Shown: positions 1,023 through 22,800 of the stretch, piece after piece
Numbering within the stretch: the first letter of the stretch is position 1
Layout: every line of letters begins with the position of its first letter
Source of the DNA: Candidatus Kuenenia stuttgartensis
GTDB taxonomy: Bacteria; Planctomycetota; Brocadiia; Brocadiales; Brocadiaceae
Assembly: GCF_900232105.1 (NCBI RefSeq)
Contig: NZ_LT934425.1
Span: 300,001-332,000 of the forward strand
Length of the DNA stretch: 32,000 bases
Direction of reading: 5' to 3'
Made by a program: the position numbers and the translations under genes
Notes under the pieces: generated by a model
Database searches by the model: none
Told to the model about the DNA's origin: nothing
The model's input: the letters and a program-made list of their open reading frames with translations, nothing else

Positions 1023-2300
1023 TTATTCAATTACCCGCCAGGCTACAGTACCTTCCTGTTGTTGATACCAGCCAGGGTCATCGTAGCTGGTAATGTCATC
1101 GCGAACCTTTAACACGGTAAACATACCGCCCATTTCGACTGGTCCAAACGGCCCTTTTCCTGTCATCATGGGTAGTGTATTTTTTGGCAAGGGCATGTTC
1201 ATCACTGCCATCCCGGACATGCCGCTCTCACCCATGGCCATATAATCCGGCAGCAGGTTTTGTATTTTCCGTTCCACTCCACTCTGATTTACACCGATCA
1301 TGTTTGGTACGTCATGCTTCATGGCGTTCATAACGTGGTGGTTCTTGTGGCAATGCAAAGCCCAGTCCCCCGGAGCATTTGCCACAAATTGTATGTCACG
1401 CGTAGTACCTGGTGGAACGTTAACCGTGGTTTCAGGCCATTGACCCGAGGCTGGAATGCGCCCTCCATCCGTACCGGTAATCTTAAAATTATAGCCGTGC
1501 AGGTGGATCGGGTGGGAGTCCATGCTCAGATTGGCGACTCTGATTCTCACCCTGTCTCCCAAACGGACTACCAATGGCGCCGTGCCAGGGAACACACGAC
1601 TGTTGAATGTGAAGAGGTTAAAGTCGGTCATGATGTTTGGATTCGGAGTACTTGTGCCGGGTTCGACAAACCATTCCTGAAGAAAGATACAGAAGTCCCG
1701 GTCGATCCTGGGCTGTTCTGGTTCTTTTGGGTGTATAATGAAAAAACCTTCCATCCCCATTGCCATCTGCACCATCTCGTCCGCATGCGGGTGATACATC
1801 TGTGTACCATGCTGACGGAGCGTAAATTCATAGACATAGGTCTCGCCCGGTTTGATTTGCGGCTGGTTCAATCCCCCGACGCCATCCATACCATTGGGCA
1901 GGAGTACGCCGTGCCAGTGGATCGTGGTATGTTCTGCAAGCTTGTTGGTGACTAAGATACGCACACGGTCACCTTCCACCGCTTCGATGGTAGGGCCTGG
2001 CGTCTGACCGTTATAACCCCAGCAGTTGACGATCATTCCTGGCGCAAACTCCCGCTTGACCGGTTCAGCGATCAAGTGAAAAACTTTAACGCCATTGTCC
2101 CACTTCCAGGGGAGGGTGCTCCCATTGAGTGTCGTAGCCGGTGTATAGGACAAGCCATGTATGGGTGGCATGATAGTGGTGGGTTGTGGTGTGGTCACTG
2201 TGTTTACAGCTTCCAACTGCTTGCGACCTAACAGCGTAGAAATACCGCCGGTTAGCAATGCCGCTGCGCTGGAAAGAATCATTTTCCGTCGGGTAATCAT
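1023..2300 (-). CDS. Multicopper oxidase (CopA/CueO-like), Tat-exported
   Basis: 425-aa ORF. The N-terminus MITRRKMILSSAAALLTGG is twin-arginine-like. Copper-ligand motifs are present: TIHWHG, HPH, HPIHLHG, HCHKNHH. AGGAG lies 6 nt upstream, and the gene starts 11 nt after the upstream gene's stop. Confidence 0.92.
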   Translation of the reverse strand: MITRRKMILSSAAALLTGGISTLLGRKQLEAVNTVTTPQPTTIMPPIHGLSYTPATTLNGSTLPWKWDNGVKVFHLIAEPVKREFAPGMIVNCWGYNGQTPGPTIEAVEGDRVRILVTNKLAEHTTIHWHGVLLPNGMDGVGGLNQPQIKPGETYVYEFTLRQHGTQMYHPHADEMVQMAMGMEGFFIIHPKEPEQPRIDRDFCIFLQEWFVEPGTSTPNPNIMTDFNLFTFNSRVFPGTAPLVVRLGDRVRIRVANLSMDSHPIHLHGYNFKITGTDGGRIPASGQWPETTVNVPPGTTRDIQFVANAPGDWALHCHKNHHVMNAMKHDVPNMIGVNQSGVERKIQNLLPDYMAMGESGMSGMAVMNMPLPKNTLPMMTGKGPFGPVEMGGMFTVLKVRDDITSYDDPGWYQQQEGTVAWRVIE

Positions 2301-2311
2301 GATAAATCTCC

Positions 2312-3772
2312 TTAATGATGAATATGGTTAGGGAGTTTTGATGGCTGAGTAGCTGGTTGTTCCACGGGTTGTGCGGGCGGATGGATAGTTTCCTCAGTAA
2401 CTAACAAGCGGCCACCAACTGCACGCTCCAGGTCAGACATGGCAATCCAGTAGTCCCTCAAAGTTTCGATGTATTCACGACCTGTGTTGATCTGGTTTTG
2501 CTTCGCCAGGAGTAACTCATACACCCCAATAAGCATGCCGTTGTAATACAGTTGGGACTCATCCACGATCCGCTGCCGAAGGGGAAGAATGACTTCCTGG
2601 TAGTATTCAACCATGTTGCGTGCAGTCAAAAGCCGATTGCGTATATCCCTGACCTCCGAACGTATATCGATTGCCAGAGAGGAGAGCCGCTGCTGGCTTT
2701 GCCTCAATTGTGCCTCCAACCGTGCGATCTCAGCCTGACGTTGGTCGAAGATCGGTAATTCAATCGTAAGATTAGGTCCTGTAAAATTTACGTTGTCAGC
2801 GACGTCGTGTTCAGTATTTACACCAACGTCAAATACATAAAAATACCGATATTTCCGCGTCAATAACAAGGCATGTGAGATGACCAGCGTCTCCTGTCGT
2901 GCGGCGGCTAAATCCAGGCGTTGTGACACAGCGAGCGACTCCAGATGTTCTAAAGGGATTTCATCTGCTGATAGCTCAGGAAGTCTGCCAGGGAGTTTCC
3001 ACGTAGTATCTGCTCCCCAAAGCCCCATCAGTCGGTTCAGACGCTCACGGTCAACAACGATTTGGATATCTGTTCTTGTCATGTCTAATTTCGCCTGAAC
3101 ATGGAACCCATGTTGATTTGCAAGATCTAACGTCTTTAAAGTGCCGGCATCGTGTTGACGGGTAGCAATGTCAACAGCTGCTTCCGTGGCCTGGACTACA
3201 GTTCGGCGCATCTCTAGTATTTGCTCATCTGCCTGAAGGGCGTAATAAGTTGACCGTACCGCCGCTGCCAGGTTCAAAACGGCATTACCAACACGCAGCT
3301 TCGCTTGTTCAAACTGAGCCGCAGCAACTTTCTTTCGTAAAGGACGCACAAGTAAATCAAGAAAATCCTGAACCACTGAAAATTCTGTATTGGTACTGCG
3401 ATGCCCTCCCACGGTCTTATCGGGGAACCTGAAGCTAGCTCCAAATGTAGGGTTCCGCAACAAACCAGCCTGTACAAGATCGGCCTGAGCAATACCCAGA
3501 TCTTCATATGTCGCCTGCAATGACCGGTTGTTAAGTAATGAAATCTGAACAGCTTCATCTAAGGTCAGTTCCTGTTGTAACATTAACCGGACGGCATCGA
3601 TCACCGCAGCATCCTCCGATGTGCCCTGACTCCAGTGTACCCGGCGACCAATGCGCTGTTCTATGATATTCTGGACGTCAGAAAATCCAGCCTCTTCAGG
3701 AACCGAAGCACAGCCAGCAAGTACTCCAATACACATGAGAGTTATAAATATGGCTATCAATCTCTGTGTCAT
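2312..3772 (-). CDS. cusC: TolC/OEP-family outer membrane efflux lipoprotein (CusC-like)
   Basis: The ORF track gives 2312..3829. I prefer the ATG at 3772 (MTQRLIAIFITLMCIGVLAGCAS, lipobox LAGC) because GGAGGG lies upstream and the ATG overlaps the upstream gene's TGA as ATGA. The length and alpha-helical/beta repeat sequence are typical of OEP family proteins. The symbol is by context only. Confidence 0.85.
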   Translation of the reverse strand: MTQRLIAIFITLMCIGVLAGCASVPEEAGFSDVQNIIEQRIGRRVHWSQGTSEDAAVIDAVRLMLQQELTLDEAVQISLLNNRSLQATYEDLGIAQADLVQAGLLRNPTFGASFRFPDKTVGGHRSTNTEFSVVQDFLDLLVRPLRKKVAAAQFEQAKLRVGNAVLNLAAAVRSTYYALQADEQILEMRRTVVQATEAAVDIATRQHDAGTLKTLDLANQHGFHVQAKLDMTRTDIQIVVDRERLNRLMGLWGADTTWKLPGRLPELSADEIPLEHLESLAVSQRLDLAAARQETLVISHALLLTRKYRYFYVFDVGVNTEHDVADNVNFTGPNLTIELPIFDQRQAEIARLEAQLRQSQQRLSSLAIDIRSEVRDIRNRLLTARNMVEYYQEVILPLRQRIVDESQLYYNGMLIGVYELLLAKQNQINTGREYIETLRDYWIAMSDLERAVGGRLLVTEETIHPPAQPVEQPATQPSKLPNHIHH

Positions 3773-4122
3773 TGTTTTCCCTCCGATTCGGTTTTGGAAA
3801 GTGCTGCCGGGACCAGTCCCATCCCACACTTAGGGCATCTGCCCAGGCTTGATTGTACTACTTCGGCATGCATCGGGCAGGTATACATTGTGGGTACGGT
3901 TGTGGGTGGATGCGTAGGCAAAGTTGGTTCGGTAGGCGGTTGTTCCGCTGTGACAGGTACCTCGGCCTGGAGCCAATTCGATCGTGGAGCAAATGCAGAT
4001 TCCAGTGCGTTCGGATTTGCCGGATCGTTGGTAGATATTGGTATTTGAAGTGTCTGGCTAGCACAACCCGTCAAGATTGTCACACACATAGCAGTCGTTA
4101 CTATCCGTGCTATCATTGTCAT
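3769..4122 (-). CDS. Small lipoprotein with a C-terminal heavy-metal-binding domain (HMBD, YxCPMH...CPxCGMxL)
   Basis: 117 aa. Signal and lipobox: MTMIARIVTTAMCVTILTGCAS. A Pro/Thr-rich linker is followed by YTCPMHAEVVQSSLGRCPKCGMGLVP. A G-rich SD sits upstream. The stop overlaps the cusC-like start (ATGA). Confidence 0.8.
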   Translation of the reverse strand: MTMIARIVTTAMCVTILTGCASQTLQIPISTNDPANPNALESAFAPRSNWLQAEVPVTAEQPPTEPTLPTHPPTTVPTMYTCPMHAEVVQSSLGRCPKCGMGLVPAALSKTESEGKQ

Positions 4123-4351
4123 CCCCCCTTTAAAAATGGCAGGAATACTACTCCAAAAGCAACCGCTGGTTTTGTTCTATCTTTGGTTAGCGGATAGAGA
4201 CTTTCTCCTTGTTCACCTGCCAATACCATTATAAGTACTTTTTAAACAAGTTATTATTCAATACCATAATCTGCTCTACACGATTTCAGCTATCAAGATT
4301 AACCCAAAATGTTTTCGCCACATTTTACCGACATCAGCGTGACTCGCCGTT

Positions 4352-4937
4352 TTACTTAATCAGTATACTTTTGCGTCGATTGTTCGAACTTATTTTTGCA
4401 CACGACCGGGCAAAAATAGTGCGTCTTACTCTGATAGGTGGCAAGTTGGCAAAATCTGGTTTGCTCTTGGTTATCCACAAATGCCAGTAATTTCCAGTAC
4501 GGTCGGTCAACCCGGCCGGTGTTTCTCCCAGAACGATGTCATTGAGAATCTTCACTTCTCTATCTAAGGTAAAAATCTTGATGGAAAAACAGGCAAAACT
4601 GCCGTGAACGATTAACCAGATTATGAACGGTAGTCTCCCTCATGTAGATGTTTTCATGAAAGCCCACGGCATCGCGGCAGTCAAGTATAAGCCCAAGCCG
4701 CCGATTGATGAGTTTCACGGAAGTAACCAGTGTGTCAGGTTCATAGGTGAGCAGTCTTTCCCAACCCGGCTCGTGTACCCATCTCAATTACCCCTCAGTG
4801 AAGACACCGAAGCGAAACACATGCCCGGCGGTATGATTCTCCTTGCCGATATAGGGAAAATAGATGTCACGCAGCTTATAGGCGGCATCAAACATCACTT
4901 GTAGCGAACCGTTACCAATAGTTAATTCTCGTGACAT
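4352..4937 (-). pseudogene. Glycoside hydrolase family 15 (glucoamylase-like) N-terminal remnant, with an in-frame stop, a frameshift and 3' truncation
   Basis: Hand translation from ATG 4937: MSRELTIGNGSLQVMFDAAYKLRDIYFPYIGKENHTAGHVFRFGVFTEG, then TAA at 4788-4790. The same frame continues LRWVHEPGWERLLTYEPDTLVTSVKLINRRLGLILDCRDAVGFHENIYMRETTVHNLVNRSRQFCLFFHQDFYLR and stops. This matches my recollection of GH15 N-terminal domains (IGNG...FPxxGxENHTxGHxFRFGV...WER...FHHDF). Weak continuation follows in another frame (ILNDIVLGETPAG..DRTG). The remaining ~450 aa of a normal GH15 protein are absent. Confidence 0.7.
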
Positions 4938-5023
4938 AACTCATTTCCTCATATACCTGGTAGTTCGATAATCTTCACATGGATTCTCATAAACAAAAAA
5001 TGATAGTTGTCTTCTTTAATAAA

Positions 5024-8000
5024 TTATATAATCATACCTGTTTCTGCAATACCGGGGTCTTTATTCAATTCCTTTTTAAACTTACGTTCTTTTATCCATG
5101 CATTCAGGCATGGCACCAGAAAAAACACAATCATCGCCATTGTCATGCCCCCAATGGAAGGGATCGCCATTGGTTTTGCAATTTCAGCGCCTGCACCGGT
5201 TGACCATATAATGGGCATCAGGCCAATAAATGTTGTCGCAGAGGTCATTACGGCCGGGCGTATCCTTCTCGTCCCTGCCAAAACAATGGTATCCCTTATC
5301 TCCTGAATACTTTTTATTTTTTTATCCTTAAACAGATCATTTATATATGTAGTGATAAGTACACCATCGTCCTGGACGATGCCAAACAGAGATATAAAAC
5401 CTACCCAAACGGCCACGCTAAAATTATATCCGAATAAATACTGCAGCAGAATGCCGCCTGCAATGGCAGTCGGTACACTGGTTAATAAAATAATCAGCAC
5501 TTGCGAAAATGATCTGAATGCCACGAAGAGGATAATAAAGCCAACAAACTGAGACAACGGGACAAGTATCTGCAATCTCTTTCTTGCCCGTACCTGATTC
5601 TCAAACTGTCCGCTCCATTGAATAAAATAACCCTGCGGCAACATGACTTTCTCAGATACCACCTTAGAGGCTTCTTCGACAAAGCTCATGGGGTCTCTGT
5701 CCCGTACGTTCATAAGGACATACGCCCTTAAAAGGGCGTTTTCACTGCTGATCATGGCAGGTCCCATGACGTAACGGATATCTGCAACCTGTGTAAGGGG
5801 GATAAGTTTGCCTGTGGAGCTTGAAACATAAATCCTTTTCAGTGCATCAAAATTATCGCGGAGTTCCCGGACGTATCTGACCCGTACAGGATAGCGTTCC
5901 CTGCCTTCCACTGTCGTTGTAATATTTTCTCCCCCTATAGCGGTCTCAATAATATCCTGCACATCCTTAATATTTATGCCATAACGTGCAATCTCCTCCC
6001 GCTTTATTATGAATTCAAGATATGGCTTTCCGGTAATCCTCTCCGCATAAAGATCAACCGCCCCCGGAACATCCCTTAAAGCCTTTTCAACATCCAGTGC
6101 CAGTTGCTGCAGCACGTTCAGGTCTGTCCCAAATATCTTAACGCCAATCGAGGTGCGGATACCGGTTGCAAGCATGTCAACGCGGTTTACTATGGGTTGT
6201 GTCCATATGTTTGCCACGCCTGGTATCCTCATGGCTTCATCCATTTCCTGTATAAGCTCCTGTTTCGTAATCCTCCGCTCATCGGGCAGAAACAAGTGAA
6301 AGACCGGGTGCAGGAAGGAAGGCACATATTGCAGAAAACCATACTCTATCTTTTTCTTTCGCCATTCCTCTTCAGGTTTTAAGGTGACAATCGTCTCAAA
6401 CATCTCGGCAGGCGCCGGATCGGTAGGGGTTTCCGCCCTGCCCAGCTTTCCCACGACTATATCCACCTCCGGAAATGACTTGATGATAACATCCTGTTTC
6501 TGCATCACCTTGAACGCATCGGTAAGCGCAACGCTCGGCAGCATAACCGGCATAAAAAGGATGGACCCTTCGTCCAATGGTGGCATAAATTCCCTTCCGA
6601 TCCTTTTCGCAACAAAAACAGATAAAATAATCACAACGATGGGAATCGTAAGAAATAGTCTCTTATGCTCCAATACCCAACGAAGTATCGGCGTATACCC
6701 GCTCAGGAGCAGCCTTGAGGTATAATTTCTCTCCATTGGCCTCAGTTTGCCTTTTAACATAAAAAAGCAAAGTGTCGGCGCCAGAGTAAGTGCGAACACA
6801 ACAGACGCTCCTATTGCAAACGTCTTCGTCCATGCGAGGGGTTTAAAAAGTTTTCCCTCCTGCCCGGTAAGCCCAAACACAGGCATAAACATAAAAATAG
6901 TAGTAAGGCCGGCAAAGAGGATTGGTGCCCCCACTTCTTTGGAAGAGTCAAGTATTATTTGAAACCTGCTCTTTTTGCCTTCATATTCTATAAGATTCCT
7001 GTATATATTTTCGGTGACAATAATTGCCATATCACTCACCTCGCCAATGGCAATAGCAATACCGGTAATGGTCATAATGTTTGAATCAATCCCCATAAAA
7101 TACATGCCCAGGAAGGAAATGATTATAGCTATAGGGAATCCAAGACAGCAGACAATAATACTTCGAATGTGCAATAAAAAGAGGGCTACAACGACAGAGG
7201 TAATAATTATTTCTTCTATAAGCGCCTCTTTCAGGGTGGCAATGACGCGATATATAAGCCCTTCTCTGTCGTAGAAAGGTACTATTTTTACCCCTGGCGG
7301 CAAACCGGGTTCGATTTCCTTTATCTTTTCCTTTATTCGCTTTATAACCTTTAACGGATTTTCCCCCTGGCGCATAATAACAACCCCGCCTGCAACCTCT
7401 GCGCCTTCCTTGTCCAGCGCCCCCCGCCTGAAGTCGCCTCCAATCTGAACCGTTGCTACGTTTTTTACAAAGACAGGCACGCCGTTATTGCTGCCAACGG
7501 TAATATTCTCGATATCGGTAACGTTTTTAATAAACCCAAGGCCGCGTATAATAAATTCCATATTATTGTTTTCCACCACCTTGGCACCCACATCGATATT
7601 GCTTTTTCGAACAGCCTCAAACACATCTCCAACAGTCAGGTTGTGCGCCATTAATTTATTGGGGTCCACATCCACCTGATATTGTTTGACAAAACCGCCC
7701 ACACCAGCAACCTCCGAGACGCCTTCAACGGCATTGAGCTGGTATCTGACAAACCAATCCTGGATAGACCGCAATTGTCCGAGATCATATCCTTTCCCCT
7801 CAACGGTATACCAAAAAATCTGTCCAAGTCCGGTAGCATCCGGACCTAGTCTTGGGAGAACATCTTTTGGAAGCAATGCCTGTACAAAGTTTAATCTTTC
7901 AAGCACCCTGGAACGTGCCCAGTAAAAATCGATATTTTCCTTGAAGATAATATAGACCATGGAGAAACCAAACGCAGACTGTGAGCGTATGACCTTTACA

Positions 8001-8233
8001 CCAGGAACGCCCAGGAGATTAACGGTCAGAGGATAAGTAACCTGATCCTCCACGTCCTGCGGGCTACGGCCAGGCCAGTCGGTGAAGACAATACACTGGT
8101 TTTCCCCGATATCAGGAATAACGTCCATGTTGATATGCCTCACCCCGAAGAGACCGCCGAATATCACCAGCAGGTAAAAGCATATGACGAGGAAACGGTT
8201 GTTAAGACATAGTTCGATAAGTTTATTGATCAT
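5024..8233 (-). CDS. cusA: CusA/CzcA-family heavy-metal efflux RND permease
   Basis: 1069 aa with a 12-TM RND architecture. The N-terminus MINKLIELCLNNRFLVICFYLL...DVIPDIGENQCIVFTDWPGRSPQDVEDQVTYPL is typical of the HME-RND family. The protein looks full length and intact. Confidence 0.93.
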   Translation of the reverse strand: MINKLIELCLNNRFLVICFYLLVIFGGLFGVRHINMDVIPDIGENQCIVFTDWPGRSPQDVEDQVTYPLTVNLLGVPGVKVIRSQSAFGFSMVYIIFKENIDFYWARSRVLERLNFVQALLPKDVLPRLGPDATGLGQIFWYTVEGKGYDLGQLRSIQDWFVRYQLNAVEGVSEVAGVGGFVKQYQVDVDPNKLMAHNLTVGDVFEAVRKSNIDVGAKVVENNNMEFIIRGLGFIKNVTDIENITVGSNNGVPVFVKNVATVQIGGDFRRGALDKEGAEVAGGVVIMRQGENPLKVIKRIKEKIKEIEPGLPPGVKIVPFYDREGLIYRVIATLKEALIEEIIITSVVVALFLLHIRSIIVCCLGFPIAIIISFLGMYFMGIDSNIMTITGIAIAIGEVSDMAIIVTENIYRNLIEYEGKKSRFQIILDSSKEVGAPILFAGLTTIFMFMPVFGLTGQEGKLFKPLAWTKTFAIGASVVFALTLAPTLCFFMLKGKLRPMERNYTSRLLLSGYTPILRWVLEHKRLFLTIPIVVIILSVFVAKRIGREFMPPLDEGSILFMPVMLPSVALTDAFKVMQKQDVIIKSFPEVDIVVGKLGRAETPTDPAPAEMFETIVTLKPEEEWRKKKIEYGFLQYVPSFLHPVFHLFLPDERRITKQELIQEMDEAMRIPGVANIWTQPIVNRVDMLATGIRTSIGVKIFGTDLNVLQQLALDVEKALRDVPGAVDLYAERITGKPYLEFIIKREEIARYGINIKDVQDIIETAIGGENITTTVEGRERYPVRVRYVRELRDNFDALKRIYVSSSTGKLIPLTQVADIRYVMGPAMISSENALLRAYVLMNVRDRDPMSFVEEASKVVSEKVMLPQGYFIQWSGQFENQVRARKRLQILVPLSQFVGFIILFVAFRSFSQVLIILLTSVPTAIAGGILLQYLFGYNFSVAVWVGFISLFGIVQDDGVLITTYINDLFKDKKIKSIQEIRDTIVLAGTRRIRPAVMTSATTFIGLMPIIWSTGAGAEIAKPMAIPSIGGMTMAMIVFFLVPCLNAWIKERKFKKELNKDPGIAETGMII

Positions 8234-8341: not shown

Positions 8342-8708
8342 TCAATTTTTGAACCTTCTATAATGAAGGGATTCTTCGCCAAAGTTTATAAGCAATCCTG
8401 TGCTATGGCGACTAGTAATAAGGCTATTTATTAACTGTGCTTCATCGACCTTTGACAAAGATTTTTCTGCTTTTATTTTCAACTATAATTTCATTGTAAA
8501 CAATGAAATCCGTAACATAATATTTTTTCAACTTTTGTTCTTTATAAAATATTTCCAATCGAAGTTGAGAAATAAATGGGGCATTTCTTAATTTGAACTC
8601 AATTTCCAAACATTCCTGATAAACGGCCTCCAGGCGTCCTGGTCCTATGATTCTGTGAACCTCCATTGCCGCTCCAATAATTTCATGTGTTCTTACATCT
8701 CTATCCAT
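8342..8708 (-). pseudogene. GxxExxY family protein (PD-(D/E)XK-like), frameshifted
   Basis: Frame A (8442..8708) reads MDRDVRTHEIIGAAMEVHRIIGPGRLEAVYQECLEIEFKLRNAPF...IIVENKSRKIFVKGR and stops. The expected C-terminus resumes in another frame: KIKAEKSLSKVDEAQLINSLITSRHSTGLLINFGEESLHYRRFKN, with its stop at 8342-8344. The shift lies in the A-rich run near 8470-8490. Total length would be ~122 aa, typical of the family. Confidence 0.75.
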
Positions 8709-8814
8709 ATATTTACCAACACCCTTTTATTTTACCAATTCTTAATCTTGAACAGGTTTTATCTGTGTGATCTGTACTACTATCCATCAATTTCTTGTTT
8801 TTTATGCGTGTTTT

Positions 8815-10371
8815 TCATGCCGCCATTTCCGTAAGTGCTTTAATATCAAGGGCTGAAGCGGTCATCAGTGAACAAGAGAACTTCTGGCCTTTCTCCGTCA
8901 AAACATAGCGGTTGGCCCTCGGAACTTTGCGGATTAGACCGTGTGCCCGCAGCATCTTTATCCGTCGGGTCGTTCGTCCGGAATATTTCTTTTGCTGATC
9001 CTTGCCGGATTGTTCGGATTCCCGGTAAAGCCACTTACGCAAATCATGGTTGCGGAATCCATTTATCGCGTTTTCGCCTTTGGACAGGAACATCAGCATC
9101 TGGTAATCATCCTGCTGCCAGGGATTCAAACCTCGATACCTCTTGCCCTCTTTGACAACCTTGTTACAAGCGCTGCTCACCACTTCTTTCAGTTTCTCCT
9201 CTACCTGAGCCGCCGCCAAAGCATCCCCATAACGATCATTGCATTGTTGGCTCACCTCACACCGTCGATGAAGATCGCTTACGCCCTTACGCATCTTCTG
9301 CCATGACGCCGGTTTGCCTTCATCATCATTGGGACTCCGAAAGACCTTAAAGTCCCGCGTATTATTGATCGTTGTCTCAATACGCAAGAGACTACCGCTC
9401 TTGTTATACATCTTCACTGAATTATAATTCACACTGTGCTTGACCCGTATACCTTCATAGCGTCTTCGATAGTCGCTGATAACCTCATCAGGGGCAGCGC
9501 CTGCAAGGTTACGCCTACCCAAATACTTCATCACCGAAGAACTGTCGCAAACCCGCATCGCATGATGAACAAACGATGGAAACAACTCCTCCAATGCCTC
9601 AACCGATTTAAACATGATGTCCGTCGCCCACTCCGTCTCATCCGCAGACCAGTAATACTCCGGTTCCAACGGACGAAGAATCTGCGACAATGCCGGGCAA
9701 CTGCCTAACGCAAGCCCGTTCAGCAGCTTCGCCCAGTCAGTCTTAAGCTGCTCATGGAGCAGAACCTGCGCAGCCGCAATATCCTCTATACGCACAAAAC
9801 AGTTGCCGTCCTTAACATAATCAATACCTTGCTTCTGAAGTTGCCGCTCCAGCCAATGACGACCATTGAGACAAATGAAAATATTAAACGGCGCCCAACT
9901 CTGGATACGAACATGACCAAAACCAAACACTGGATCATTAAAATAATGATACACAAAGACACACTTGCGGGGCGCCATTACCAACTCGAGCTTCTTGCTG
10001 GCCTTGTTGCCCTTGACCATCGGCGCAATACAAGGCTCTACCACACTCAACAGGCAGATGGAACCTTCCGTAATCCTCTTATCCGCCGCGATCTGGCGAG
10101 CCAACTTCTCCTTATCAACACCGCTGCTCATCAAATACCGCACCTCGATACCCAAATCTTTCGCCCGCGATTCACAACTGTCTCGCACCTGTGCCGTAAG
10201 CCCATTGACCCAACCGGAAAAATCCTTAAGCAGAATTCTCGCTTGGTTCATGAATGTTCCCATCCCACGCTCACTGGCCAACCACCGCAATGTCCCGCGA
10301 AAACGAATCCTGTCCAGACCGCTTATTGCACCCACGATCCTGTCTCGATATAATTCCATCAACTTATTCAT
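8815..10371 (-). CDS. Conserved-looking 518-aa protein of unknown function with a basic winged-helix-like C-terminus; possible mobility protein
   Basis: A long uninterrupted ORF with a strong SD (GGAGGA 7 nt upstream). The C-terminal segment RTTRRIKMLRAHGLIRKVPRANRYVLTEKGQKF resembles a wHTH wing. I found no DDE, HUH, Tyr or Ser recombinase motif. It lies inside the putative insertion. Confidence 0.8.
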   Translation of the reverse strand: MNKLMELYRDRIVGAISGLDRIRFRGTLRWLASERGMGTFMNQARILLKDFSGWVNGLTAQVRDSCESRAKDLGIEVRYLMSSGVDKEKLARQIAADKRITEGSICLLSVVEPCIAPMVKGNKASKKLELVMAPRKCVFVYHYFNDPVFGFGHVRIQSWAPFNIFICLNGRHWLERQLQKQGIDYVKDGNCFVRIEDIAAAQVLLHEQLKTDWAKLLNGLALGSCPALSQILRPLEPEYYWSADETEWATDIMFKSVEALEELFPSFVHHAMRVCDSSSVMKYLGRRNLAGAAPDEVISDYRRRYEGIRVKHSVNYNSVKMYNKSGSLLRIETTINNTRDFKVFRSPNDDEGKPASWQKMRKGVSDLHRRCEVSQQCNDRYGDALAAAQVEEKLKEVVSSACNKVVKEGKRYRGLNPWQQDDYQMLMFLSKGENAINGFRNHDLRKWLYRESEQSGKDQQKKYSGRTTRRIKMLRAHGLIRKVPRANRYVLTEKGQKFSCSLMTASALDIKALTEMAA

Positions 10372-10505: not shown

Positions 10506-12485
10506 CTATTTTTCTTCCTTAAACTCCATCGCTCCGCCATACAATGCACTTGCTCCGCCTGTAAGCTGGCTCTGGGAATCGATGAGGAAATTTGCTGATG
10601 TGACAACCCTGTCACCTTCTTCAAGCCCCTCCATCACAGGATAATAATCGCCCGCTTTTGGCCCAAGAATCACTTCCTTCCCAACGTATTGACCGTTGCC
10701 TTTATCAATATAGACAATCTTTCGTACACCCGTATCCAAAACTGCCGTGGCAGGAATGGCAAGCATTTGTGTGATTTTTTCAAGACGCATTCCGCACCTG
10801 GTGCAATTATCAGGTTTATCCGATGTTACTTCAGGATGCATGGGGCAGGTGTAAATGGTACGTTTTCTGTGTTCTGTTTTTTTCACCTTCATTCCCACAC
10901 CTTCCCTAACTTCCCATCTGCCCATTTGCCTTTTACAGTCGGGACATTCACCAGGCTTATCCGAGGTCATGCATGCCATAGGGCACATATAGACATACTT
11001 TTGTATCTTTTCACCAGTGGGCGAAGTTACCGTTATACTCTTCTGAAGCATCATACCACACATAGGACAAGACTTTGGGGAAGTATCAGGGTCCCATTCC
11101 TGCGGACAAATGCACGTCACCGTTTCATCAACAGGCATTTCCTTTTTTTCGAGATGCATACCACATACCGGGCAATCACCCGGTTTGTCAGACACATAAC
11201 AATTCATCGGGCATACATACTCATATTCAGTTTCCCCAATTCCCTCTGTTTTGCCTTCGGCAGTCATTTCAAGCCGCGCCGAGGTTTTTTTTATAAATGG
11301 GACATTATCCTCGGGGCATATACCGGGTCTGCTTGATTTAATTTCAGGATGATTGGGACATACATAATCCAGTCCGCTCACATAGGTTCTGTCTCGTTCC
11401 TCCAGTTCTTCAACAGGTATACGTATGCGGGCATTGACATACATGGCAGGTTTGAGTCTGAGCTGACGGTTAGGAATATCACACCGTATTTTCACAGAAC
11501 GCGTCTTATCGTCAAGAAACGGTTCTATAAACGATACCGTTCCGATAAATGCCTCTCCGGGATATGCAGGAGTTGTGACTTCCACCTCCTGTCCAACCTT
11601 TATCCACGCCATTTCATACTCATAAATGTTGGCCATCATCCAAACCTTGGAAAGATCGGCAAGGGTGTATATCATCTCGCCCGTCATAACATATTGCCCT
11701 TCCAGCATCTTCTTCTCTATGACAATACCGCTTATCGGGGCATAGATGATCGTATGTTGTTTTATTTTTCTGTTTCTTGCAAGTTCTTCAATCTGTCTTT
11801 CACTAATACCCCACCATAACAACCTTTTTTTGGTTGCATCTATGAGAGATATTGTGCCGTCCACCACTTCCTTAAAAGGGCTATTCTCTACTTTTTCAAA
11901 GGTTTCCAGCGCCAACAGATACTCTTTCTGTGTAGATACCAGATCAGGACTATACATCCATACCAATGACTCGCCTTTCACTACCTCTGTACCGGTGAAA
12001 TCAATAAACAGTTTGTCTATCCTGCCAGGAATCCATGCGGAAACAACCGCTTTAAGCCGTTCATCGTATTCAATCAATCCAACCGTATAAACATCTTTAG
12101 TTAACGACCGGAATCCGATAACGTCAGTTTTAACCTGTGCCAGTTTACGGGCGCGTTCACTTAATTCTACGGAGGCTAATGCACCTTCTTCCTCCATACC
12201 TGCACCTTTTTCGTATACAGGAACTAAATCCATGGCGCAAATAGGGCATTTTCCTGGTTTATCCATCCTGACGGAAGGATGCATCCCGCATGTCCAGTAG
12301 ATTATCTTCTTTTCTTTTGTTTCTTCAGCATTTGCGGAAGAAATAAAATTTATCCCATCCTGTAGAGACGCATTGCAATATGTCTCTACATAATTGGATA
12401 TTTGTATACCAGAAAGAACACTAAGTATGACAGTGACTATTATTATAAAATATCTCAAGGAAAGAAATTTTTGTTTAAACAACAT
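10506..12485 (-). CDS. cusB: CusB-like RND periplasmic adaptor (membrane fusion protein) carrying six HMBD-like modules
   Basis: The ORF track starts at TTG 12503. I prefer ATG 12485 (MLFKQKFLSLRYFIIIVTVILSV, a TM anchor). The MFP core is present (barrel-sandwich, hairpin and beta-barrel sequence, then LAIPATAVLDTGVRKIVYIDKGNGQY...VTSANFLIDSQSQL). HMBD modules: IYWTCGMHPSVRMDKPGKCPICAMDL; YVCPNHPEIKSSRPGICPEDN (degenerate); YVCPMNCYVSDKPGDCPVCGMHL; CICPQEWDPDTSPKSCPMCGMML; YMCPMACMTSDKPGECPDCKRQM; YTCPMHPEVTSDKPDNCTRCGMRL. Confidence 0.9.
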   Translation of the reverse strand: MLFKQKFLSLRYFIIIVTVILSVLSGIQISNYVETYCNASLQDGINFISSANAEETKEKKIIYWTCGMHPSVRMDKPGKCPICAMDLVPVYEKGAGMEEEGALASVELSERARKLAQVKTDVIGFRSLTKDVYTVGLIEYDERLKAVVSAWIPGRIDKLFIDFTGTEVVKGESLVWMYSPDLVSTQKEYLLALETFEKVENSPFKEVVDGTISLIDATKKRLLWWGISERQIEELARNRKIKQHTIIYAPISGIVIEKKMLEGQYVMTGEMIYTLADLSKVWMMANIYEYEMAWIKVGQEVEVTTPAYPGEAFIGTVSFIEPFLDDKTRSVKIRCDIPNRQLRLKPAMYVNARIRIPVEELEERDRTYVSGLDYVCPNHPEIKSSRPGICPEDNVPFIKKTSARLEMTAEGKTEGIGETEYEYVCPMNCYVSDKPGDCPVCGMHLEKKEMPVDETVTCICPQEWDPDTSPKSCPMCGMMLQKSITVTSPTGEKIQKYVYMCPMACMTSDKPGECPDCKRQMGRWEVREGVGMKVKKTEHRKRTIYTCPMHPEVTSDKPDNCTRCGMRLEKITQMLAIPATAVLDTGVRKIVYIDKGNGQYVGKEVILGPKAGDYYPVMEGLEEGDRVVTSANFLIDSQSQLTGGASALYGGAMEFKEEK

Positions 12486-12554
12486 AATTATCGCACCTTT
12501 CAAAATATAGCGTAATGAAGTAATGATTTTGCCTTAAACTTTTAGAGTAAAAAC

Positions 12555-13142
12555 CTATTTTTGAAACCGCTCTTGTTTTTTTTCACAAATTGGACAGGCC
12601 AGAAAGTCTATATCGCATGTCTTGCAATGCTGAATAAGCCATTCCTGCGACTTCATCCTGCAATCCCGGCATTTCATTTTCCAGGTTGCCAATGCCTTTC
12701 CCTTCACATATCTTGAGAGTACCTTTTTGCACTTGGGGCACTTGCCTATCATTGTTTCGGCTTTTAAACCAGCGGATGCCTTTTGACACGCTGTGCATAC
12801 AAGAACGTCTTTTCCACACTTGTCACAATGATGGACTTCGAGTGCTGATACTTCACTTTTGCAGTCAGGGCAAACCATACTTTTTGCGGCAAGTGCCTTT
12901 TCTTTCTCCGGACTTACATACACTTTCTCACAAAAAGGGCACATGGGTGGCTCTGTGGTTGAATGCTCAGCCAGCGGGTCGTTTTCACTGTGTTTGTGCG
13001 CTACCTCGCCAGCATACATCAGATTACCTCCCCACAGAAGTAGATACATAATTACCGGCGCAACTGTTTTTATAAATTTCTTACAAACCATGGTATCACC
13101 ACTTTTCATTAAAAGATTACTAATTCTTTTCCCTTTTACCAT
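12555..13142 (-). CDS. Secreted cysteine-rich protein with two tandem 4xCxxC (double zinc-ribbon-like) units
   Basis: 195 aa. ATG 13142 is preceded by GGAGGT at 8-nt spacing and overlaps the ATPase 3' end by 23 nt. The hydrophobic leader is VAPVIMYLLLWGGNLMYA. Unit A is MCPFCEKVYVSPEKEKALAAKSMVCPDCKSEVSALEVHHCDKCGKDVLVCTACQK. Unit B is KCPKCKKVLSRYVKGKALATWKMKCRDCRMKSQEWLIQHCKTCDIDFLACPICEK. Confidence 0.8.
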   Translation of the reverse strand: MVKGKRISNLLMKSGDTMVCKKFIKTVAPVIMYLLLWGGNLMYAGEVAHKHSENDPLAEHSTTEPPMCPFCEKVYVSPEKEKALAAKSMVCPDCKSEVSALEVHHCDKCGKDVLVCTACQKASAGLKAETMIGKCPKCKKVLSRYVKGKALATWKMKCRDCRMKSQEWLIQHCKTCDIDFLACPICEKKQERFQK

Positions 13143-22449: not shown

Positions 22450-22677
22450 TTACTGTTCGTGCTTATGGCCGTAATGATGGTTATGCCCATCGTTATGGTG
22501 GTTTACTTCCATTTTTGCCAAATCCATCCCACACACAGGACATTTTCCAGGCTCATCGCTTTTACTGCCTTCATGTTTCATGTGGCAAAGATAACTATCC
22601 TCTATGCCATGTTCTGCCTCCATATATTCATAATTTTCATGGGCAGTTTCTGCACTGTGATGATGATCATGACTCAT
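22450..22677 (-). CDS. His-rich 75-aa protein with a central HMBD motif and no signal peptide
   Basis: MSHDHHHSAETAHENYEYMEAEHGIEDSYLCHMKHEGSKSDEPGKCPVCGMDLAKMEVNHHNDGHNHHYGHKHEQ. There are 16 His in 75 residues. GGGGAAG is a plausible SD about 5 nt upstream. Confidence 0.7.
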   Translation of the reverse strand: MSHDHHHSAETAHENYEYMEAEHGIEDSYLCHMKHEGSKSDEPGKCPVCGMDLAKMEVNHHNDGHNHHYGHKHEQ

Positions 22678-22800
22678 GTGCTTCCCCTGTTCCCGGAGTG
22701 ATTGTACATAGGCATAAACTATTATTATATAGTACAGTGTGTATGGTAATATGAGACATTACCTAGTATAGCGTTTCATTAAAATATCTACATTGATACC

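Follow-up and report, generated by a model that had tools for sequence, protein, structure and literature searches.

In the CusCFBA system of E. coli, the N-terminal region of the periplasmic adaptor CusB (CusB-NT) receives metal from CusF. CusB has also been reported to activate the pump CusA directly, and a review of adaptor architecture describes the extra domains of heavy-metal adaptors as only N- and C-terminal (PMC4446572). The locus analysed here lies in a 32,000-nucleotide stretch of Candidatus Kuenenia stuttgartensis (contig NZ_LT934425.1, positions 300,001 to 332,000; the whole stretch is hereafter called the window) and codes for a CusB-type adaptor that is anchored in the membrane and belongs to a CusA-type Cu(I)/Ag(I) pump of the resistance-nodulation-division (RND) family. 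The adaptor gene occupies 10506..12503 of the window and, like all other window features given below, is on the (-) strand. Its product contains six HMBD modules (PF19335), one near the N-terminus (N) and five (I1 to I5) carried by a 211-aa insert, which is located at the hinge linker between the β-barrel and the membrane-proximal domain. The HMBD module itself is already known, and the adaptor shows a lineage-specific, differentiated expansion of it.

The HMBD of the P-type ATPase LpCopA (8OVL) is a small β bundle with a rubredoxin-knuckle turn, in which Ag+ is bound by three sulfurs, those of M44, C59, and M61, as determined by nuclear magnetic resonance (NMR) (PMC11970713). Its closest relative is the N-terminal domain of SilB, which has the same geometry with a Met in place of C59 (PMC11970713). 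SilB of Cupriavidus metallidurans (5A4G) resembles the Kuenenia protein in being a metal-efflux adaptor with extra metal-binding domains, the N-terminal one showing the knuckle fold and a trigonal sulfur site. However, the extra domains of SilB are terminal, and the C-terminal one is a CusF-like OB-fold. The Kuenenia modules belong to the same family as the LpCopA domain, and N, I2, and I5 share with it the CPMHP...CPxCGM pattern with the Met/Cys/Met triad. Whereas the P-type ATPase LpCopA has a single, cytoplasmic copy, six periplasmic copies are present on the Kuenenia RND adaptor, and in three of the six the ligand set is altered in a conserved manner. In the P-type ATPase literature, the term HMBD mostly denotes the unrelated ferredoxin-like domain. 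A Nature Communications paper citing PF19335 covers a ferredoxin-like chaperone and hence was not used.

The adaptor is encoded by a 665-aa open reading frame (ORF) with a TTG start, whereas its database versions start at Met7 (12485) and comprise 659 aa (Q1Q4X4_KUEST / KsCSTR_31700). It is identical to the 659-aa Candidatus Kuenenia stuttgartiensis entry (UniProt Q1Q4X4), which is labelled hypothetical/uncharacterised. The protein begins with a membrane-anchor helix (aa 12-43; 12375..12470) assigned from the AlphaFold2 secondary structure. The adaptor core, composed of the lipoyl, α-hairpin, and β-barrel domains (11436..12104), is covered by a Pfam match to HlyD_D23 at aa 134-356 (6.7e-74), and aa 578-645 (10569..10772) form the C-terminal half of the membrane-proximal domain. 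The adaptor scores 102.5 bits with TIGR01730 (RND_mfp), above the cut-off of 94.9. With the NCBIfam CusB subfamily model NF007303 it reaches 161.8 bits against a cut-off of 390; for this reason, the sequence is better described as CusB-like than as a close CusB orthologue. No CusF-like domain is found among the Pfam matches of the adaptor at E values up to 0.1.

A preliminary description, made from the letters of the window, had placed an array of five HMBD-like modules at 10776-11366. The (-) strand translation of this interval is the stretch described, extending from YVCPNHP to RCGMRLEK, and the sequences named there as its flanks, MYVNARIRIPVEE and MLAIPATAVLD, are correct. Pfam and a family hidden Markov model (HMM) both identify HMBD modules, N plus five internal ones and six in total, so that the possibility raised in that description of a block unrelated to HMBD is not borne out by the domain searches. 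In the whole adaptor, PF19335 matches at 6.1e-39 in five stretches. The modules were also scanned singly, the gathering score of PF19335 being 23.6 bits. The N-terminal module (aa 68-95; 12219..12302) scores 49.7 bits and aligns to the region of E. coli CusB that contains M49/M64/M66. Among the internal modules, I1 (YVCPNHP...GICPEDN; aa 380-406; 11286..11366) scores 29.7 bits, I2 (CPMNC...CPVCGM; aa 427-454; 11142..11225) 42.6 bits, I4 (CPMAC...CPDCKR; aa 503-530; 10914..10997) 24.6 bits, and the canonical I5 (CPMHP...CTRCGM; aa 550-577; 10773..10856) 45.9 bits, and thus four of the five exceed the Pfam cut-off. I3 (CICPQEW...CPMCGM; aa 462-489; 11037..11120) gives no PF19335 match in the single-module scan and is detected by the family HMM only. 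This HMM, iterated on the family's own modules, recovers all six, I3 at E=1.6e-5. The module scores are far beyond chance. Single modules additionally give weak matches to zinc-ribbon families.

The Kuenenia modules are mutually 0.42-0.57 identical. Searches for tandem and dispersed repeats over the gene at the DNA level gave nothing meaningful, and the duplications are therefore old. The same result rules out a recent repeat expansion or an assembly artefact.

The metal ligands of each module were located through the HMM alignment and numbered after LpCopA (C42/M44/H45/C56/C59/M61). N and I5 both have the signature C-M-H-C-C-M, and I2 has C-M-N-C-C-M, the Met/Cys/Met triad thus being complete in these three modules. 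In I3 (C-Q-E-C-C-M) a Gln takes the place of the first triad Met, and in I4 (C-M-A-C-C-R) an Arg takes the place of the last one, leaving two of the three ligands in each. I1 (C-N-H-C, followed by a CPED segment) has none of the triad, while its Cys/His/Cys set and acidic residues remain. The degenerate motifs pointed out earlier are indeed present: the second CxxC is lost in I1 (GICPEDN), and I3 starts with CICPQEW. Moreover, aa 549-578 of the adaptor match the N-terminus of LpCopA in a phmmer search of solved structures (8ovl_A and 3rfu_A, chain residues 38-67).

In the same HMM alignment, M44/C59/M61 of LpCopA coincide with M49/M64/M66 of E. coli CusB, its known Cu(I) ligands. One published paper lists M64 among the three copper-binding Met residues of CusB. 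The Kuenenia adaptor has Met, Cys, and Met at these positions, the Cys in place of M64 being the residue found in LpCopA. Because the CusB residues align to the LpCopA triad, the metal-binding N-terminal segment of E. coli CusB is, judging from the alignment, a Cys-free HMBD.

E. coli CusB (3H94, 3NE5) and the Kuenenia adaptor share the four-domain fold, the homologous N-terminal metal-binding segment, and a CusA partner that keeps the three-Met site. The two proteins align in two blocks by phmmer (1.1e-37), residues 58-356 of the query corresponding to CusB 33-313, and residues 579-652 corresponding to CusB 323-396. Once the insert is spliced out, the alignment becomes continuous. About ten linker residues of CusB (313/323) are thus replaced by 211 residues in the Kuenenia adaptor, whereas CusB has no internal modules and its N-terminal module is Cys-free, with the Met triad only. 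In CusB, the 313/323 linker connects the last β-barrel strand to the first C-terminal strand of the membrane-proximal domain. Since CusB aligns in the two blocks 33-313 and 323-396, the insert is located at this linker, outside the β-barrel. The preliminary description had the insert inside the β-barrel and facing the funnel of the pump, and this placement has to be corrected, whereas its assignment of the host protein to the CusB type holds, given the HlyD_D23 match, the CusB alignment, and the structural match to 3ne5_C.

The AlphaFold2 model, which was built on a 72-sequence alignment, has a mean predicted local distance difference test (pLDDT) score of 73, with the core near 90. In Foldseek, it is matched best by the CusB chain of the CusBA structure (3ne5_C; E=5.4e-20, target TM-score 0.68), and the alignment spans 547 columns for a target of 324 residues, that is, about 220 extra columns. 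In the model, the last β-barrel strand is formed by aa 355-363. All six modules share the same strand pattern. I1, I2, and I5 are modelled at pLDDT 80-89 and I3 and I4 at about 50; the inter-module linkers are disordered, most of their residues being below 50. Particularly, I5 is joined to the membrane-proximal domain without a linker, through a single unbroken strand (aa 575-584). The precomputed Pfam order of a homologue, namely HMBD, barrel-sandwich, helical bundle, β-barrel, and HMBD, agrees with this arrangement. The idea that the insert extends the adaptor across a wide planctomycete periplasm was rejected, as the site is the membrane-proximal hinge and not the α-hairpin, and the linkers are flexible.

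The insertion point aligns with the His-bearing linker (FLSQPHEGIVVP) of ZneB from C. metallidurans (3LNN). Judging from the residue spacing, this His is presumably the ZneB ligand H284, E328 presumably being another ligand. ZneB binds Zn at the interface between the β-barrel and the membrane-proximal domain, and binding is accompanied by a conformational change (PMC4446572). The parallel between the two adaptors is one of position, the metal site of ZneB lying at the interface that carries the insert in Kuenenia. They differ in that ZneB uses three side chains of its core domains for Zn(II), whereas the Kuenenia adaptor carries discrete inserted Cys/Met modules.

The module series is conserved in Brocadiales. 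Across 83 full-length homologues, the modules occur in the order N-I1-I2(x1-3)-I3-I4-I5, and forms with a single N-terminal module account for 72 of the 83. Copy number varies only for the triad-intact I2 type (one to three copies); two I2 copies are found in 46 of the 83 proteins, and one copy, the type of the Kuenenia window, in 22. The ligand signatures are near-invariant, with CNHC in 77/84 I1 modules, CQECCM in 70/78 I3, CMACCR in 76/83 I4, and CMHCCM in 80/82 I5. The mean identity to the query is 0.71-0.87 for the modules and 0.80 for the core, compared with 0.21-0.65 for the linkers, and the two degenerate modules I1 and I4 are the most conserved of all (0.87). The near-invariant signatures and the strong conservation of I1 and I4 indicate, at the level of sequence, that the divergence of the modules is differentiation under selection rather than decay.

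The wider distribution was surveyed by mapping the best 120 database homologues with anchor searches and, separately, by examining species-representative genomes. All these surveys are biased toward relatives of the query, the prevalence among CusB-like proteins as a whole being outside their scope. In Brocadiales, every full-length homologue and locus sampled has four to seven internal modules. Among the best 120 homologues, deeper Brocadiia relatives have two or three, and those more distantly related, with a length of about 500 aa, have a single one, except for one protein with two and one with none. The species-representative genomes show four to seven internal modules in Kuenenia, Brocadia, Jettenia, Wunengus, and Loosdrechtia, three in Subterrananammoxibius, and four in an unrelated Planctomycetota genome. 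Adaptors from Aminicenantes, Zixibacteria, Gemmatimonadota, Omnitrophota, Sumerlaeota, and Victivallales mostly have one module at the same junction.

In addition, the insert alone was searched without a profile against 1.84 billion representatives. The anammox family is collapsed to one representative there (1e-109), and the search also returned many multi-HMBD proteins. These include adaptors with N-terminal HMBD arrays (for example P0154, P0160, and P0178) or C-terminal ones (P0141, P0149, and P0196), of two to six modules, and adaptors from other lineages with internal arrays of three or four modules at the same junction (P0184, P0198, and P0226). The adaptors with internal HMBDs in other phyla share the insertion site, and their module is the I5 orthologue. 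Unlike the Brocadiales proteins, however, they (including P0184, P0198, P0226, and L038, whose internal arrays are independent) do not have the differentiated I1/I3/I4 types. Within P0184, P0226, and the Subterrananammoxibius protein L034, the most alike modules are 0.68-0.89 identical, compared with 0.42-0.57 in Kuenenia, and this difference fits separate, later duplications in these three proteins. The same search returned NuoD-like and NuoJ-like (complex I subunit-like) fusions with five to seven HMBDs (P0121, P0123, P0126, P0124, and P0133), an architecture that is not known to have been reported. In L019 (Ca. Wunengus sp. YC64), a second cusBA pair is found on the same contig (1148-5814 of that locus). 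Its adaptor has 467 aa, with two N-terminal HMBDs and no internal one, which shows that a single genome can hold adaptors of both types.

These occurrences bear on the rarity that the preliminary description had attributed to the array. Single or arrayed internal HMBDs occur in other phyla and HMBD arrays are found at other positions, which weakens the claim of novelty; what stands is that none of the proteins found with such HMBDs is characterised. No description of an internal HMBD in an adaptor is present in the literature searched on HMBD/PF19335, adaptor domains, and anammox CusB. The insertion site is thus widespread in sequence databases and undescribed in that literature.

In the window, the partner of the adaptor is a CusA-type RND pump at 5024..8233, which matches the CusA/CzcA model TIGR00914 with 1034.9 bits. 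Its Met residues align with M573, M623, and M672 of E. coli CusA, and the retention of this triad argues for Cu(I)/Ag(I) as the substrate. While cusB is directly 5' of cusA in nearly all Brocadiales loci, the two genes are separated here by 2.2 kb that contain two ORFs (8442..10371). The larger one (518 aa; 8815-10371) belongs to no Pfam or NCBIfam family, has no homologue in the 37 other Brocadiales loci examined, and is not surrounded by terminal inverted repeats in our search. It is probably a recent insertion, because it is absent from those 37 loci, in which cusA mostly adjoins cusB. The smaller one, an 88-aa PDDEXK_3 ORF (8442-8708), is located just upstream of cusA, and Kuenenia sp. Bin_40 has a shorter fragment in the equivalent position.

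Further genes of note are located on both sides of this pair. An outer-membrane efflux protein (OEP/CusC-like) is encoded at 2312..3829 and a multicopper oxidase at 1023..2300. A predicted lipoprotein of 117 aa (lipobox LTGC) with one canonical C-terminal HMBD is encoded at 3769..4122, its gene adjoining that of the outer-membrane factor. Small HMBD ORFs similar to it are found downstream of cusA in the other anammox loci L004, L005, and L021, and a second small single-HMBD protein is encoded in the window at 22453-22758. These small HMBD proteins may be periplasmic chaperones analogous to CusF. On the other side, at 12555..13142, lies the gene for a membrane-anchored 195-aa protein with eight CxxC motifs, and a partial paralogue is present at 2-346. 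The family of this CxxC-rich protein (about 180-195 aa) has 57 database matches, all hypothetical and from Brocadiales only, and its members are found next to cusBA in 9 of 38 loci, 5' of cusB in some and 3' of cusA in others. Gene remnants may be present in the gap of 0.9 kb at 4122-5024, since a 40-aa ORF within it (…HYFCPVVCKNKF…; 4356-4478) resembles the remnant of a YHS-type domain, and Kuenenia sp. Bin_40 has a YHS-phosphorylase gene downstream of cusA.

The adaptor gene contains an A8 homopolymer at 11285-11292, which covers codons Ile404-Thr407, and the final two Lys codons of I1 fall within this run. Another Ca. Kuenenia stuttgartensis assembly reads as though the run were A7, so that the adaptor gene is frameshifted and encodes an adaptor of 406 aa ending in PFIKKPRRGLK* and, separately, a 'heavy metal-binding domain-containing protein' of 215 aa. 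Either an error of sequencing or genuine slip-strand variation could account for the A7/A8 difference.

A relay or a switch, both suggested in the preliminary description, remains plausible. We tentatively regard it as most likely that the modules, tethered at the hinge of the adaptor, capture Cu(I) and hand it over, or sense it. The triad-intact N, I2, and I5 would bind periplasmic Cu(I), and I1-I4 on their flexible linkers would serve as a tethered antenna, increasing capture in the vicinity of the pump. I5, putatively the ancestral module and predicted to be joined directly to the membrane-proximal domain, would together with the N-terminal HMBD pass the metal to the three-Met entry site of CusA and/or couple metal occupancy to a pump-activating conformation of the hinge. 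I1, I3, and I4 are probably lower-affinity or other-metal sites, or docking surfaces. The hinge component of this proposal is drawn from the precedent of ZneB at the corresponding interface. Several observations weigh against it. A full triad is missing from three of the five internal modules, and two of these three, I1 and I4, nevertheless show the highest conservation, which simple Cu(I) capture fails to explain. Furthermore, the Cys/His/Cys/Cys positions also correspond to those at which zinc ribbons hold structural zinc, the pLDDT of I3 and I4 is low, and the LpCopA study calls its HMBD a sensor and not a delivery domain (PMC11970713). A more elaborate version, which we hold to be unlikely, would make the five internal modules an ordered, differentiated device. 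They would serve either as a ladder of affinity or selectivity moving Cu(I) directionally from the bulk periplasm to the CusA entry, or as a multi-threshold sensor at the hinge; I1, with its Cys/His/Cys and acidic residues, might then respond to another metal or be the docking site of a partner, for which the small HMBD lipoprotein and the CxxC-rich protein are candidates.

The main rival to capture and hand-over is a pure allosteric sensor, in which occupancy would shift the hinge and switch CusA on with no metal being passed, the graded sites widening or sharpening the response. The sensor role proposed for both the LpCopA HMBD and the SilB N-terminal domain (PMC11970713) is in line with it, as are the direct activation of CusA by CusB and the conformational change of ZneB with metal at this interface (PMC4446572). 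The alignment of the insertion point with the His-bearing linker of ZneB and the rigid coupling of I5 to the membrane-proximal domain in the model point in the same direction. We nevertheless consider a pure sensor somewhat unlikely: five modules joined by flexible linkers of low conservation are not an obvious requirement of a switch, the tolerance of one to three I2 copies is unexpected for one, and the stand-alone small HMBD proteins in the clusters suggest metal traffic between like modules. Alternatively, the modules could be structural zinc ribbons that hold Zn through Cys/His/Cys/Cys and provide spacers or contacts for the adaptor ring, with no role toward the transported metal. The LpCopA fold resembles zinc-binding domains, its C42, H45, C56, and C59 aligning with their zinc ligands (PMC11970713). 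The weak zinc-ribbon matches of single modules and the high conservation of I1, I3, and I4, which keep most Cys/His positions in the absence of a full triad, also agree with such a role. However, Ag+ binding to LpCopA shifts M44, C59, and M61 and leaves the side chains of C42, C56, and the His unshifted (PMC11970713). In addition, the homologous segment of E. coli CusB is Cys-free and uses the aligned Met residues for Cu(I), N, I2, and I5 retain the triad strictly, and H45 is substituted in I2, I3, and I4. Zinc ribbons are thus quite unlikely in our estimate.

It is still less probable that the array is a mere periplasmic buffer, which would sequester a thiophilic metal, Cu(I) or another, close to the membrane without being coupled to transport. 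Many Cys/Met sites would be present per hexameric adaptor ring, the copy number of the binding-competent I2 is variable, and HMBD arrays occur in unrelated proteins too, all as expected for a buffer. Yet at most 36 modules per pump give a small capacity, and the array is always found at one exact junction of an adaptor whose gene neighbours cusA, which a free buffer would not need. An expansion of repeats now in decay, in which the ancestral I5 alone has a function, might be read from the graded degeneracy of the modules and from the frameshift of one assembly in the A8 run, but we give it hardly any credence, as conservation within the insert is highest in the degenerate modules (0.87 identity), the variant signatures are near-invariant across the Brocadiales homologues, and repeats are absent at the DNA level.

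CusB-type adaptors might deliver metal to the pump or act only as its switch, and the continuing debate on this point rests mainly on the disordered N-terminal segment of E. coli CusB. The hinge of the adaptors described here offers a folded, NMR-tractable version of the module, single-copy in many phyla and present as a conserved series of variants in anammox bacteria. These natural ligand variants are a ready set of constructs for distinguishing relay from switch. Anammox bacteria live strictly anaerobically, contain an abundance of iron-sulfur and haem proteins, and serve in wastewater treatment, in which inhibition by copper is of practical concern. The conserved module series points to a heavy investment of anammox bacteria in periplasmic Cu(I) handling.

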